The notes beneath the pieces are model-generated. The model was not told where the DNA came from and ran no database searches. It worked only from the letters and a program-made list of their open reading frames with translations. This document shows, one piece after another, positions 1 to 12,661 of a DNA stretch of 45,307 nt (positions within the stretch are counted from its first letter, which is position 1; every line of letters begins with the position of its first letter). The DNA is from an uncultured cyanobacterium. Lineage in GTDB: Bacteria > Cyanobacteriota > Cyanobacteriia > Leptolyngbyales > Leptolyngbyaceae. A program made the translations under genes and the position numbers. The DNA lies in NCBI GenBank assembly GCA_963766075.1, contig CAVYAN010000029.1:1-45307 (forward strand), read 5' to 3'.

Positions 1-2243
1 GAGTACCACTGCGGGCATCAATATGGGCGTGGAAGATGACATTGACTTCCGGATAAAACATCATGGCCGCGCCGGGGCGAATTTGGCCATAGATGATTTC
101 CACCTCTTCTAATTGGCCAGCATCCCCCTGAACCGTGACGCGCTGATGTTCGACAAAACCAGCGGTGGCAGCATCACTGGCATTCATTAAAATGCAATTC
201 CGGTGGGGCATGCCGCGATAGCGATCGCCCGATTGATAGACGACGGTGTTGTGCTGAGCGTAGCTGCGCCCCGTACCCAGAGCCAGCACAATCCCTTGGT
301 GAAAGTCCACACCAAAGTCATGGGCCGATGGAAGCTGTAAATGGGGCAACGGCGTCACAAACATGTGGGCTTTGCCAGAGGGCGTGGCAAACTTAGGCTC
401 GGTGAAAATGCGTCCGGCGATGGTGAATTCGGCATGGGTTGTGTCAATCTCGGCGATCGCCGCGTAGCCCGGAATTGTCTGGGCAATCAGTTGCCGCACA
501 TAGGCGGTATCCTGTAATTTGCGCCAGTTAACGGGTGTATCACCCTGTAGGCGATGGGCCAGTTCCGCCAAAAATTCCACCTCTGAAACAAGATCCGCCT
601 CCTTCAGATGGGTTTCGCCCGGTTCATTCAGTCGGACAAAGTTATTGCCAGATTCAACGGTAGTTTTGTGGGGATTTTCAAATCGGGTGAATACAGGAAT
701 GATGATTGTGTTAGCCTTGGCAAGTCCGTGAAAGTGTCCAACATTAGGCTTAGTGGCTATGTAGATGATAGTCTCAATATTACCCAAAGCCCGTTTTGCT
801 TGATTTAAATCGGGATTGGCAGCATAGAGATTTCCCCCCAGACACAGCAGCGTATCCACCTGGTGCGCATTCGCCGCATCAATCAGGGCGCGGGTATCAT
901 AGCCCGGAACTCGGCTGAGGGGCCGATCCAATAATTTTTCTAGGGCCGCCTGAATGTCTTGCCGCAGGTTCACCGTCACGCCCATGGAGCCAAAGCCCTG
1001 AACATTCGAGTGGCCGCGAATCGGCATCGTCCCGGCACCGGGTTTGCCCGCATTCCCGCTGAGCAGAGCCGTATTAGCAATGCTAAAAATATTGTCTACA
1101 CCATTGGCTTGTTGGGTGACACCCATGGCCCAGGCAAAGACAACAGCATTGGCATGACCGATGACTTCTGCCGCGACGAAAATTTCGGCTTGCGATACGC
1201 CACAGGTTTGCACAATCGTGTCCCAGTCCGTAGATTGGACTTGGTCTAAAACCGATTGCCAATTTTCAGTGTGGTGTTTGAGAAAGTCGATTCGGGCGAG
1301 ATTCTGTTCGATCAGCGCTTTCTGAATCCCAACAAAGAGGGCAACATCACTCCCCGGAATCGGTTGTAAATAGAGCGAGGAAATCTCGGAGCCACCGCTC
1401 AGCATGGATTTAATCGGATAGGCGGGCGAGGCAAACTTAACGAGCCCCACTTCCACACAGGGATTGATCACAATCACCTTGCCCCCGCGATCGCGCAATT
1501 GAATCAGTTCATTCAGCAAGCGGGGATGATTGGCGGGCGCATTGGAACCAATCAGCACCACACAGTCCGCTTGCTTTAAACCCTCCAAGCTAACCATAGA
1601 TGTGCCAGAACCAAACATTTGCTTGAGGCCGACGGTAGAGGCCGCATGACAAAGATCAGAACAATCTGCCAAATTATTGGAGCCTAAAGCGCGCAGCAGG
1701 AGTTGCAGGAGAAAGGCGGCTTCGTTGGACGATCGCCCCGAACTGTAGGAGGCTACTCGGGTCGGGGATTTTTGCAATGCAGCGGTGGCCAAGGCATACA
1801 CCTCCTCCCAGCTAATCCGTTCGTAGCAGATCGCAACCAGCCCGCCGAATCACGGGAAAACTCAGACGACCCAGGTTATTGGCCTGCTCGGAGGTGAGCT
1901 GTTGCAGGTCAGCCAGCGGCGTGTGGTCAAAAAAGTGCGGACGCAAGCCGGGTTGCAGCTCCGAGGCGATCGCTTCGACACTTTTAGCACACCGTTGCAA
2001 CACCTCACCGTCTTCGTTGACAAAGCCGCCTCGCTGCCCACCCGTCCCCCAGGCACAGGAGAGACAAGCACTTTTGTGCAACAGGGTTTTCCAGATTTTG
2101 GGACCGTCAACTGAAAGGGTGTGATTGGCCCAGTATTGCAGGACGGGAAGGCCACCCCCCACGGTCGGCAGATTGGGAGTCGGTGGATTGGGAGTCGGCG
2201 GATTGGAGATCGGTGGATTAGCGGATTGGGGTTCTGCACTCAT
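1..2243 (-). CDS. FdhF/YdeP-family molybdopterin oxidoreductase; 3' end lies outside the window; +1 frameshift near 1829
   Basis: N-terminal ORF has SACLSCAW and RCAKS. After one extra base the frame continues YERISWEEVY...YSSGRSSNEAAFLLQ...NNLADCSDLCHAAS...GSNAPANHPR, and near position 1 reads MMFYPEVNV...DARSGT. ATG at 2243. Confidence 0.85.
2170..2230. repeat. 15-bp tandem repeat (GATTGGGAGTCGGTG-like) encoding PPTPN repeats in the oxidoreductase N-terminus
   Basis: gattgggagtcggtg gattgggagtcggcg gattggagatcggtg. Confidence 0.8.
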
Positions 2244-8770: not shown

Positions 8771-8897
8771 TATGCTCCCCAGCCTAAGAGGATGTCTGAA
8801 AAGCCCAGGTATAGCGAAGGAAGGGAAAAAGAAGCCCTCATTCCGTAAACTGTCAGAAGAAAGAAACCTTGACAGAAGAATGAGAGCCATGAACCTA

Positions 8898-10116
8898 GGG
8901 AGCATCTCACCTTTGCAATGAGCATAAATGCTTAGTGATAATTTCATCGAAATACGACAAAATTGAGTCACTGATTTGAGGCTTTGCCGCCATGACGCCT
9001 GAAGAATTACAAAAAATAGAATACCATGCCAACCAAATTGCCCAAATTCTCTATTCTGATACGGATCCGAAAGTGATTCAGACCTTGGGGGATATTGAAA
9101 CTACCGTTCGTCAGCAAATCCTGCAGCATGTCAGCCCTCCTATCGGTGTTTTTTTGTCAAAAATGCCACCGAAATCGAAACGGGAAGAAAGCGAAACATC
9201 AAAACAACAATCGGGAATCTTGAAATCACGGAACGTCAAGCCCAACACCTCAATGTAAAACCCTATACTCAAATCAGTGAGCACTTAGAAAACTGCTGTC
9301 TACTCGTGAGTGCAAATAGCTCTTATGCACGTTCACAAGAAGATTTAGCAATTCTAATGGGAATAGATATTTCTCATAGTACTCATCATAGATTAGTGCA
9401 TCGTCAGGAATTTAAGGGAATCATTTCTGAAACCACTATTGAATCAATGAGTTTAGATGGCGGAAAAGCTAGAATCCGCACCCCCAAGGGTGAAGTGTCT
9501 ATTTACAAAGATTACAAAGCCGTGGTTTTAGAAGGTCAAGGGATCGGGGGATATTTCCAAAAAAATGAGGCGTTGATTGATTGGGTCAATAGCCAACCCT
9601 TAGCCACCACGGTTTCCTGTTTAGGCGATGGGCATGATGGGATTTGGAATGTATTTCGTGCGGTGGCGGTTCCAGAACAGCGGCGTGAAATTCTGGATTG
9701 GTACCATTTGGTCGAGAATTTGCAAAAAGTGGGTGGCTCGAACAATCGCTTAAATCAGGTGGAAGCCTTGTTATGGACTGGCAAAGTCGAGGCGGCGATG
9801 GCGCTGTTCTCCGATTGCACTCTTGATACCGTGCCCAATTTCATCACCTATCTGACCAAGCATCGGCATCGGATTCCGAATTATGACTATTTACAGTCAG
9901 AAGGATTCACCATTGGCTCGGGTGGCGTGGAATCTGGAATTAAACAAATTAGTCGCCGGGTGAAAATTTCAGGAGCACAATGGGAGGCGAAGAATGTCGA
10001 TCAAGTCGTAAAACATCGGTGTGCCTACCTAAATGGTCAATTTTCAACGCATTTTCAGCTTTCCAGGGCGATATAATCACAAGTATTTCTACTCATCGCA
10101 AAGGTGAGATGCTCCC
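8898..10116 (+). mobile_element. ISKra4-like element, 1219 bp
   Basis: IRs GGGAGCATCTCACCTTTGC(A/G)ATGAG; 8-bp duplication TGAACCTA at 8890-8897 and 10117-10124. Confidence 0.9.
8992..10076 (+). CDS. ISKra4-like transposase in two frames (probable programmed -1 frameshift at the T7 run near 9149-9155)
   Basis: ORFs 8992-9258 and 9306-10076; SLDGG, LGDG, LDWYH and GSGGVES motifs. Confidence 0.82.
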
Positions 10117-10126
10117 TGAACCTATC

Positions 10127-11826
10127 GGCTACCGATATAAAGCGGGACAAAATGGGATGTTGTCGTCAGCCCAGCGATGAAAAAAGCCCTCACGATGGTC
10201 GCAAGGGCCGTATCGTTTCCTCATAACCAAACGAGGGGACGATGAAATTTACTATAGGGGAACGCGTTCAAAAAGTCTTCCACACCCTATCGGGTCAGGG
10301 CCAGCAAACCCTGCGAGGGATGGCCGCGCGGATCGGCTTGTCGAAAAGTAGTGTGCATCGCCACCAACAAACGATGGCCCGTCGCAATCAGCATCCAGAA
10401 TCTGGGTTATGGGAAAGTGCCGCCGGTGCGCATTGGCTCCATCGATTGGTGATCGCAAGTATTTTTGTTTTCTGTTTCAAACGTGGCGTCGGCTGTGAAA
10501 GTCTGAGCGAATTTTTCCAGTTGCTTCGGTTAGAGCAACACATTGGCATTTCGGTTTCGTCATTACGTCAGATTCGGTCGCAGATGGCAACCCAAGTGTT
10601 GCACTATCAACAGGTGCAACACTTGGCATTAGCTAATTCGGATCAGCCTATTGAAGTCTGTGCCAGTGTCGATGAAACTTTTTTCGACCAAGTTATATTA
10701 GTGATGTTGGATGTCCCCAGTGGCTTTATTCTGGTGGAAGAACTCGCAGCAGATTATCGCTACACGACCTGGCAGCAGCACACCCAACGGGTCTGAACCC
10801 AGTTGGGCTTCACGGTGCGATACTGTGTCAGTGACCGCGCCAAAGGCTTAATCAAATTGGCCCTCCAGGATTTGGCGTGCCCCAGCATTGCCGATTTGTT
10901 TCATGCCTTACGCGACCTCTCCAAAGGCCTCGGACGAGAACTCGGGCAACGGTTATTTCGGGTCAACCGCCGACTCAATGATCTGGGCGACCAACCGGAA
11001 ACAGCGGCGTTAAAACAGCAACTGCAAACGGAGCAACAGACCTTACAGGCTGCACAATCTCAATACCACGATTGTTTACATCAACTGACGATGGCCGTAC
11101 ATCCCTTCGAGATTCGTCAGGGCATCAAACAAACGAGTGGCCAGGTTGCCGCCCAACTCACCGCCCAACTCCAAGTCCTGAAAACGCTCAAAAAAAGCCA
11201 TCAGTTGCCCGATACCATCGGTTGCTTGCCCAAGGTGGTGGGACAAATCCCGGACTTGAGTGCCAGCATCGATTGCTGGTGGAATTGGGTGCAACAGAGC
11301 TTAGAGGCGCATCCCGATCTGCCCACGCGCGCATGGGCGCAGAACGCTTTATTACCCGCCTTTTACTGGGAACAGCAAACGCAACGGACGAAAAACCCGG
11401 ACCTCAAAGCCGTCTATCAGCAGGCACTCCAATCGGCGCAAATCGCCTTGATGGCCCATCCCTTGACCACCGCTTTAGCACCCGCACAATTTGCCCAATG
11501 GCAAGCGTGGGCCACCGCAATGGTGACGAAATTTCAGCGGACTTCTTCGGCCGTCGAAGGCCGCAATGGCTATATCTCCCAGATTCATCACAATCGGCGC
11601 GGACTCTCGGCGCGGCGATTAGGTGTAATGACTACCATTCACAATTTTTACCTCAAACGCGCGGACGGCTCGACGGCGGCGGAACGACTCTTTGGCAAGT
11701 CCGCTCCGGACCTCTTTGAATCGCTCATTCAACAGATGCCGCCCCTCCCCCAAGCCCGACGACGGAAAATTACCGCCAAACCTAAAACTGTTGCACTGCA
11801 GACTGTCCCGGCTTAAAGTGGTAGCC
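10127..11826 (+). mobile_element. DUF6399-type insertion sequence, 1700 bp
   Basis: Ends GGCTACCGATATAAAGCGGGACA and TGTCCCGGCTTAAAGTGGTAGCC (18/23 inverted match); 7-bp duplication ACCTATC at 10120-10126 and 11827-11833. Confidence 0.85.
10242..11816 (+). pseudogene. DUF6399-like DDE transposase (524 codons) with in-frame TGA at 10794-10796
   Basis: ORFs 10242-10796 and 10803-11816 are in the same frame; N-terminal HTH; SVDETF, VSDRA, DLFH, SSAVEGRNG. Confidence 0.78.
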
Positions 11827-11833
11827 ACCTATC

Positions 11834-12613
11834 CTATCCGACTGACATGAGTGATGCACAATGGGAACTTTTGTTACCGTTGCTCCCTGCTGCCAAAACG
11901 GGCGGACGCCCCCGCAGTGTCGATCTCAGAGCCGTTATCAATGCCATCTTTTATAGAGTTGTCGCTGGTGGTGCATGGCGCATGTTGCCGCACGACTTTC
12001 CCAAGTGGCAAACGGTCTATCACTACTTCAGGGCATGGCGCTTAGAGGGTAGCTGGGAGAAGATTCATGCCCAATGTGTCGAGTGGGAGCGGGCGATTCA
12101 AGGGCATGAGGCCGTGCCGAGTGCTGCCAGTATGGATTCTCGATCGGTAAAAACCGGCCTTCCCACGGCGATCACCATCGGTTTTGATGGCGGCAAAAAA
12201 CGAAAGGACGCAAACGTCACCTCATGGTGGACACCTTGGGGTTGGTCATGATGGTTGTGGTCACAGCGGCCAATGTCAGCGACCAAGCGGGGGCGCGTCT
12301 CCTCTTCAATCGCCTTGCGGCGGTGCCGGAGCGGATAGCGCGGTTGGTGCGGATTTGGGTTGATGGCACCTATGAAGGCGTGGATTTTATGCGGTGGACG
12401 ATGGATACCTACCGCTGGATTCTCGAAACCATTAAACGTTTAGAGGCGGCCAAGGGCTTCGTCTTATTGCCGAAACGGTGGGTAGTCGAACGCACTTGGG
12501 GATGGCTCAATTGGTCACGCCGCTTATCGAAAGACTACGAAGTTTTGCCGGAAACCTCCGAAACCTTCATCTATGTTGCCATGATTCGACTCATGCTCAG
12601 ACGGCTAGCGTAG
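11834..12613 (+). pseudogene. IS5/IS1031 transposase body (start codons displaced to 8889; frame change at the A6 run near 12195)
   Basis: YPTDMSDAQW, WRMLPHDFPKWQTVY, DSRS, KGRKRH across the frame change, WVDGTY, RWVVERT. Confidence 0.9.
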
Positions 12614-12661
12614 CTGTTAACTTCTCAGACATCCTCTAAGCCTGCGGCACGCTCAGCGAAC

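Follow-up and report, generated by a model that had tools for sequence, protein, structure and literature searches.

A DUF6399 gene (Pfam PF19936) in an uncultured cyanobacterium of the family Leptolyngbyaceae raises a simple question: is it the transposase gene of an insertion sequence (IS), and if so, of which family? Its homologues are named in the databases 'hypothetical protein' or 'DUF6399 domain-containing protein', the latter being the RefSeq name for plasmid copies. The window, i.e., the whole stretch of DNA that was analyzed, is 45,307 nt of the forward strand of contig CAVYAN010000029.1 (assembly GCA_963766075.1). Positions 10127-11826 of the window are very probably a copy of an IS whose sole gene, the DUF6399 gene, encodes a predicted DDE transposase, the copy having been disabled by a nonsense codon.

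The boundaries of the element were determined by reading the sequence and by comparing copies of the element in which it is nested. The unit of 1700 bp opens with GGCTACC at 10127 and closes with GGTAGCC at 11826. It is flanked by the 7-bp sequence ACCTATC at 10120-10126 and again at 11827-11833. A repeat search showed that its terminal inverted repeats, IRL (10127-10149, + strand, GGCTACC...GGGACA) and IRR (11804-11826, - strand), are 23-nt imperfect arms with 18/23 (78%) complementarity. An inverted repeat by itself is weak evidence, because the 4.7 kb around the unit contain 78 inverted pairs in total. The empty site, however, is known. The element lies within an IS5-family element, the host, that has four further copies (L005-L008) in the same genome, all uninterrupted. 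At the insertion point these copies read ...CCATGAACCTATCCTATCCGACTGACATGAG... (in a longer reading, ...GAGAGCCATGAACCTATCCTATCCGACTGACATGAG...), with ACCTATC present only once. When the two nested insertions are taken out, each with one of its duplication copies, the interrupted host is 937 bases long and is colinear with the four copies at 96-99% identity. Since the empty site is known and the alignment is colinear, the unit is an insertion; its ends are exact and its target duplication is of 7 bp. This length is unambiguous because the bases flanking ACCTATC differ on both sides. Metagenome contigs carrying near relatives start at 10127 or stop at 11826, and one runs on into an unrelated flank; these contig breaks, as read from the sequences, are independent support for the boundaries. 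In the whole genome the end pattern was matched only twice. Thus the initial annotation, which had described a 1700-bp unit with inverted ends between two copies of ACCTATC, is confirmed. Its further claim, that the unit had inserted into another transposase gene, stands in so far as the insertion is inside another IS with a known empty site, but the insertion point is 13 nt upstream of the usual start of the transposase.

The element has a single long open reading frame (ORF) on the + strand, occupying 1575 of the 1700 bp and ending with TAA at 11814-11816. The first part (10242-10796) consists of 184 codons and a premature in-frame TGA as codon 185 (10794-10796). It encodes a winged helix-turn-helix (HTH) and the first catalytic Asp, D144. 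The remainder of the same frame (10797-11816) encodes D198, D218-x-x-H221, a helical insertion, E439 and the Pfam DUF6399 region. Relatives that are ~96% identical in two metagenome runs (X1 and X2) have T at 10795, where the window has G, and read TTA (Leu). Because the relatives read T at this position, the TGA is a nonsense mutation. In full-length homologues the column at codon 185 is mainly Leu, with Ser, Cys and others in some. The read-through product, with X at the stop, has 524 residues. A Pfam search of this protein returned DUF6399 and HTH only: PF19936 matched residues 368-509 with 199.6 bits (E 3.2e-59, gathering threshold 35.4 bits), so the label given by the initial annotation is correct, and HTH_IclR matched residues 8-48 (E 2.4e-5). 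The HTH, D, D, DxxH and E motifs noted at the outset are all present and are conserved in alignments of 35 and of 76 homologues. In both, D144-E145, R199-A200, F220-H221 and E439-R441-N442 are invariant or nearly so, and D198 and D218 are each at least 90% conserved. The C-terminal TVPA/TVPS is also conserved because the right end overlaps the last codons.

Judged from its sequence, the copy in the window is an inactivated relic, present once and nested in the IS5-family element. No second copy, solo end or miniature derivative was found in its own genome, an 85%-complete assembly. A decayed DUF6399 gene of another clade, broken into four frames, lies on contig 13 of the same genome (L002, ~144-1746, minus strand). 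A relative in an NCBI genome, P0035, is called as a 319-residue fragment, 91% identical, that starts at the same residue as the second ORF of the window; that genome may hold a similarly broken copy. In the leader between IRL and the start codon, a consensus scan identified a G+C-rich hairpin followed by a T run (10185-10209, - strand), and a promoter scan found no sigma-70-like site there. In a circle that joined the two ends directly, TTAAAG of the right end (11813-11818) would be placed 17 nt from TATAAA of the left end (10136-10141). By eye this resembles a possible junction promoter.

The structure of the protein was predicted with AlphaFold2 (AF2) using an intact relative, P0002, which is 86% identical to the window protein, and an alignment of 76 sequences. 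The model has a mean predicted local distance difference test score (pLDDT) of 83.8 and a predicted template modeling score (pTM) of 0.76. It begins with a winged HTH at ~residues 5-48 and further helices, followed by a core in the order β1-β2-β3-α1-β4-α2-β5. The first three strands are at residues 137-147, 150-157 and 163-169, the first helix is at 174-188, the fourth strand at 190-197, the second helix at 201-210 and the fifth strand at 215-217. Long helices continue to ~residue 430 and a helix follows at 437-449. D144 is on strand 1, D198 is just past strand 4 and D218-x-x-H221 comes right past strand 5. E439 opens the helix that follows the helical insertion of ~210 residues. An Asp on β1, an Asp after β4 and a Glu on a later helix are thus predicted to be arranged as in the RNase H-like core of DDE enzymes, the fold that the initial annotation had proposed to look for.

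Structural comparisons agree with this assignment. The best Foldseek matches are the transposases Hermes (E 5.3e-5) and ISCth4 (E 3.5e-4), with TM-scores of ~0.3, which is as expected for multi-domain proteins. In VIA-align, a method independent of Foldseek, the top match is ISCth4 (6xg8_A; Z 13.7, rmsd 4.2, 263 residues, model residues 63-483), followed by retroviral integrase cores (Z 12-13, ~130-148 residues spanning model residues 133-486), Hermes (8edg_A; Z 11.8, 302 residues) and the P-element transposase (Z 9.0), although Z values of this size can arise by chance with helical models. The top VIA-align rows are all RNase H-fold recombinases and cover the strands as well as the last helix, so the hits to the model appear coherent. 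The nearest solved structure is that of an IS256-family transposase, which fits the Mutator-like reading offered initially. When a profile of the 76 sequences was searched against PDB sequences with hmmsearch, only winged-helix proteins were matched (residues 7-54, E 0.0016) and the core matched none.

The DUF6399 family is large. Among 7997 candidates scored, 1374 are homologues at E<=0.001, mainly of 520-530 amino acids. A profile search of 1.84 billion proteins, in clusters at 50% identity, returned 2911 representatives at E<=0.001, 685 of them at E<=1e-30. PF19936 matches all of the aligned homologues (76/76). Members occur in the cultured cyanobacteria Acaryochloris, Nodosilinea, Leptolyngbya and Crinalium. 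No copy with more than 69% DNA identity was found in 401 genomes of the class. When one genome per species was scanned, tblastn confirmed 315 places that encode a relative, and 79 loci were kept for analysis of the ends.

To find the ends at these loci, inverted repeats were searched for and copies within a genome were compared. A position matrix was then built from 56 ends (28 elements) and run over all 79 loci. Both ends with at least 8 nt of flank are present at 49 loci, one end only at 24 (a truncated copy or a contig end) and no end at 1; at the other 5 the contig exactly equals the element. Conservation of the end sequence extends over the family, and the matrix has the max-letter line GGCTACCAACTTAAGCCGGGACAGA. 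At two-ended loci the ends score 20.7-39.7 bits, compared with a maximum of 7.3 in 40 shuffled flanks. A perfect flanking duplication was found at 25 of the 49 assessable loci, 10 of them of 7 bp and 15 of 8 bp. The chance of a perfect 7-mer match is ~6e-5 per locus, and for each duplication the probability of a chance match is at that level or less. Homologues with conserved ends and short duplications thus exist, as the interpretation offered from the window alone had anticipated. The length of the duplication tracks relatedness among clades. It is 7 bp in the clade of the window (elements of 1708-1711 bp, proteins 63-68% identical) and in the Waterburya clade (2134-2135 bp, 45-46% identical). 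It is 8 bp in clades at 36-41% identity, namely a cyanobacterial clade with GGGTAYC ends, a proteobacterial group and a Methylovulum metagenome-assembled genome (MAG).

One Waterburya MAG has at least nine copies that differ by 0-4 nt over 2134 bp, which, from the sequences, points to recent multiplication. Several copies are also present in another Waterburya MAG, in a Leptolyngbya genome and in a proteobacterial MAG. The ends of the Waterburya-clade elements, left and right, open with GGCAACC or GACAACC. These elements (L046, 455-2588; also L043-L054 and L085-L088) carry an extra divergent ORF of 134 amino acids (513-917 of L046, minus strand), which has no significant Pfam match. In the Waterburya genomes, two sets of insertions, L043, L045, L047, L054 and L085, and L050, L051, L053, L080 and L087, lie in the same short repeated targets in both orientations, with duplications such as GTTCGAC and GTCGAAC. 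From the sequences, these elements may be nested in another repeat or may prefer a particular target.

Several observations weigh against reading the element as an IS with DUF6399 as its transposase. First, residues 435-439 of the model, around E439, have a pLDDT below 50. Second, no known transposase-family sequence model in Pfam or NCBIfam matches the window protein significantly, and the rve hits in 58/76 members are below threshold. Profile comparisons by hhalign are also weak: with the neighboring ISKra4-family ORF the E-value is 0.1 over only 24 N-terminal columns, with nine IS256 transposases it is 0.39 and the E motif alone is aligned, and with six cyanobacterial ISL3 transposases it is 0.02 (probability 2%) over 219 columns. 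Third, the duplication is absent at 24 of the 49 assessable loci, some of which share flanks with other copies. Eleven of the 24 are in the Waterburya clade, and several of their flanks recur, inverted or swapped, in other copies. The shared flanks suggest recombination between copies. Fourth, the elements from which the matrix was built were also scanned with it, which makes finding the ends circular in part but does not affect the duplications. Fifth, nine complete copies in one Waterburya MAG (L046-L053, L087, L088) encode Glu at the position of D198 (VSERA), where the copies of a sister Waterburya genome have Asp. A catalytic Asp would not be expected to tolerate Glu, unless the Glu works or the copies moved in trans. 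Sixth, the genome of the window has only this copy and the decayed relative on contig 13, with no sign of recent movement. Finally, as regards the mechanism, Hermes, a cut-and-paste enzyme, matches the predicted model almost as well as ISCth4.

Taking DUF6399 to be the transposase, the movement of the element can be pictured as follows. The HTH region, i.e., the N-terminal winged HTH and the helices after it, would bind the 23-nt inverted ends. Cleavage of the 3' ends, whose last base is C, would take place at the D-D-E site, which would then link them to target DNA opened with a 7-bp stagger. In more distant clades the stagger would be 8 bp. Repair of the stagger would give the duplication. 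Movement by copy-out/paste-in through a circular intermediate is proposed because the closest solved structure is that of the IS256-family ISCth4 and because near-identical copies accumulate in some genomes.

A first rival, less likely than the main reading, concerns this last step. In a hAT-like cut-and-paste mechanism the element would be excised by double-strand cleavage with hairpins on the flanks, and the choice between this and copy-out/paste-in is about even. Hermes is the best match in Foldseek and gives the longest aligned stretch among VIA-align rows with Z>=10. The ~240 residues from the second Asp (D2) to the Glu lie between the 99-138 of bacterial Mutator-like enzymes and the longer insertion of hAT transposases, and 8 bp, the length of the duplication in part of the family, is also the hAT length. 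The top VIA-align match, on the other hand, is a copy-out/paste-in enzyme, and at least nine near-identical copies fit a copying mechanism more easily. No prokaryotic IS is known to move by hAT-like cut-and-paste.

A second possibility, to be given perhaps one chance in several, is that ISfinder already lists the family under an IS name, the ISNCY set being one candidate, and that only its Pfam/NCBI label is uninformative. Some of the ISs of the cultured genera that carry members have been curated, which is in favor of it. Nothing in the NCBIfam IS-family models, however, matches the window protein at E<=0.1 except for a 13-bit N-terminal HTH match to an IS256 variant model. For IS256 itself there is no match to PF00872 (Transposase_mut) at E<=0.01, and the HTH stretch scores 13-18 bits with NF048019, whose cut-off is 150. 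The models for ISKra4, ISLre2 and ISH6 (NF033572, NF033529 and NF041731) give no match at E<=0.1, whereas the neighboring IS matches all three. A 2014 survey of prokaryotic Mutator-like elements (PMC3942029, Guerillot et al. 2014) lists five families, and the NCBIfam models named for four of these five do not match the window protein. RefSeq keeps the name 'DUF6399 domain-containing protein', and none of the papers in the library searched mentions 'DUF6399' or 'PF19936'. Judged from NCBIfam, Pfam, the names given by the Prokaryotic Genome Annotation Pipeline (PGAP) and the literature, it is likely that the family is unnamed, in keeping with its initial description as poorly classified. ISAm1, an 'unclassified' element of Acaryochloris marina CCMEE 5410, was considered as a published member and set aside on its description in PMC8763236, because its 1513-bp span is shorter than a DUF6399 gene and because other Acaryochloris strains are said there to lack it, whereas two of them have DUF6399 genes.

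Somewhat less probable is the third alternative, that the element is a very divergent member of ISL3 and does not form a family of its own. The hhalign alignment of the 76 DUF6399 sequences with ISL3 superposes the D1, D2, D-x-F-H and E-G-x-N motifs. One of 12 distant representatives scanned, P0143, passes the cut-off for PF01610 (DDE_Tnp_ISL3; 23.6 vs 23 bits) and matches NF033550 at E 2e-6. Weak HTH_Tnp_ISL3 hits occur in 26/76 members (best E 0.0011). Neighbors in a protein language model carry the ISL3, Mutator and IS66 families, and the nearest named clusters carry DDE_Tnp_ISL3, which is a lead only. Duplications of 8 bp and ends starting with GG are also ISL3 features. Against this, neither the window protein nor P0002 matches PF01610 or NF033550, and PF01610 does not figure among the 25 families with matches in most of the 76 members. 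The DUF6399 proteins are ~100 residues longer than the ISL3 sequences used for hhalign, which were ORFs of 387-415 amino acids under Pfam hits, and they have an extra-long helical insert and a winged HTH start. In the same set-up ISL3 and IS256 align at E 1.5e-4, compared with 0.02 for DUF6399 and ISL3; the distance of the DUF6399 family from ISL3 is therefore no smaller than that between ISL3 and IS256.

Least of all, and highly improbable, is that DUF6399 is a passenger or regulator and that a transposase encoded elsewhere moves the element: the missing transposase-family match, the broken window copy and the multiplied Glu-at-D198 copies would fit this, but the element has no other long ORF, the ends vary together with DUF6399 from clade to clade, the last DUF6399 codons form part of the right end, and the protein is predicted to fold as DDE transposases and integrases do, with D, D and E conserved where expected.

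The transposase reading is retained. The family is probably separate from the IS families that have names, with ISL3, IS256 and the other prokaryotic Mutator-like groups as distant relatives. Three marks of the prokaryotic Mutator-like elements are given in PMC3942029. The first is a C/D(2)H signature 11-19 amino acids after D2, past strand 5. In the DUF6399 protein D218-L-F-H221 comes 20 residues after D198, at the edge of this range. The second is a helical insert of 99-138 amino acids between D2 and E. The DUF6399 insert is helical, but D198 and E439 are 241 residues apart, about twice that length. The third is inverted repeats of 18-39 bp with a terminal cytosine, and direct repeats of 8-9 bp. 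The 23-nt repeats with a 3' C fit this description; duplications are of 7 bp in the clade of the window and of 8 bp in more distant ones.

When all parts are taken jointly, the proposal becomes an evenly balanced one. DUF6399 elements would constitute a sixth, unnamed family of prokaryotic Mutator-like ISs, widespread in cyanobacteria and also present in proteobacterial and other MAGs. Their transposase would have a helical insertion twice the usual bacterial length, between those of IS256/ISL3 and of eukaryotic hAT/Mutator. The stagger would switch between 7 and 8 bp along the family tree, and one lineage whose second catalytic Asp is replaced by Glu would have multiplied.

The host IS5-family element extends over 8788-12636 (+ strand; approximate ends, with TAA on both sides), as determined from an inverted pair, Pfam matches and comparison of copies. 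A longer inverted pair found by the repeat search, 8777-8803 and 12621-12647, bounds it. Its two ORFs, orfA (11847-12251) and orfB (12224-12613), both on the + strand, match Pfam DUF4096 and DDE_Tnp_1 and overlap in a frameshift arrangement. The DUF6399 element is inserted upstream of the ATG at 11847, where the Pfam DUF4096 alignment begins. Intact host copies have an extra in-frame ATG 24 nt further upstream of the usual start. From the sequence, the insertion would be in the leader of the IS5 transposase gene or, less likely, in an N-terminal extension, if the upstream ATG is the true start.

A second nested IS, of the ISKra4 family, occupies 8898-10116 of the same host (1219 bp, + strand; NCBIfam NF033572, E 3.5e-63), 10 bp to the left of the DUF6399 element. 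Its ends were fixed by comparing copies, and it has an 8-bp duplication, TGAACCTA, at 8890-8897 and 10117-10124. It is a young insertion, and the genome has at least five identical copies of it. Its ends read GGGAGC...GCTCCC, and its ORFs, 8992-9258 and 9306-10076, are arranged as described for the ISMich2 group with a frameshift. On contig 8, the flanks of two ISKra4-family copies are exchanged (TACAGAAA), suggesting that an inversion took place between the two. As far as the sequence goes, both orders of the two nested insertions are compatible with it.

Assignment of DUF6399 as a transposase would give a function to a Pfam 'domain of unknown function' with 2911 cluster representatives. Annotators and IS-detection tools could then recognize these repeats of 1.7-2.1 kb, which break assemblies, as is apparent because many members sit alone on contigs of 1.7-2.5 kb. 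The family would add a deep branch to the IS256/ISL3/Mutator/hAT transposase group. The clade-specific duplications of 7 or 8 bp and the lineage with Glu at the second Asp would be handles on target stagger and on the tolerance of the active site.

Among known systems, the closest in structure is the IS256 family (p-MULT 1; ISCth4, PDB 6xg8/6xgx/6xgw), the best structural match. In each, the RNase H-like core is interrupted past strand 5 by a helical insertion, the second Asp is followed by D/C-x-x-H, and N and basic residues come after the E. Each element has one ORF, inverted ends closing in 3' C and short duplications. IS256 elements are ~1.3 kb long, compared with 1.7 kb for the DUF6399 element. 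They differ further in the distance from D2 to E, ~240 residues in DUF6399 against the 99-138 reported in PMC3942029, and in the duplication, 8-9 bp compared with 7 bp for the window copy and 8 bp for other DUF6399 clades. With ISL3, the likeness is the motif-level alignment of D-E, D, D-x-F-H and E-G-x-N and the weak HTH and DDE hits in some members; the DUF6399 protein is longer and has an N-terminal winged HTH. With ISKra4, ISLre2 and ISH6 (p-MULT 2-4) it shares the C/D(2)H signature, a helical insert, the terminal C and short duplications, as these are described in PMC3942029, but their family models match the neighboring element and not the DUF6399 protein. The hAT transposase Hermes (PDB 8edg/4d1q/2bw3) also has a long all-helical insertion in an RNase H fold and x-x-H after the second Asp. 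Hermes, however, is eukaryotic, has 10-12% sequence identity, and uses a cut-and-paste hairpin mechanism that is known for no relative of the DUF6399 element. The DUF6399 element is not a new kind of mobile element; it would work like an IS of the IS256/ISL3 type.

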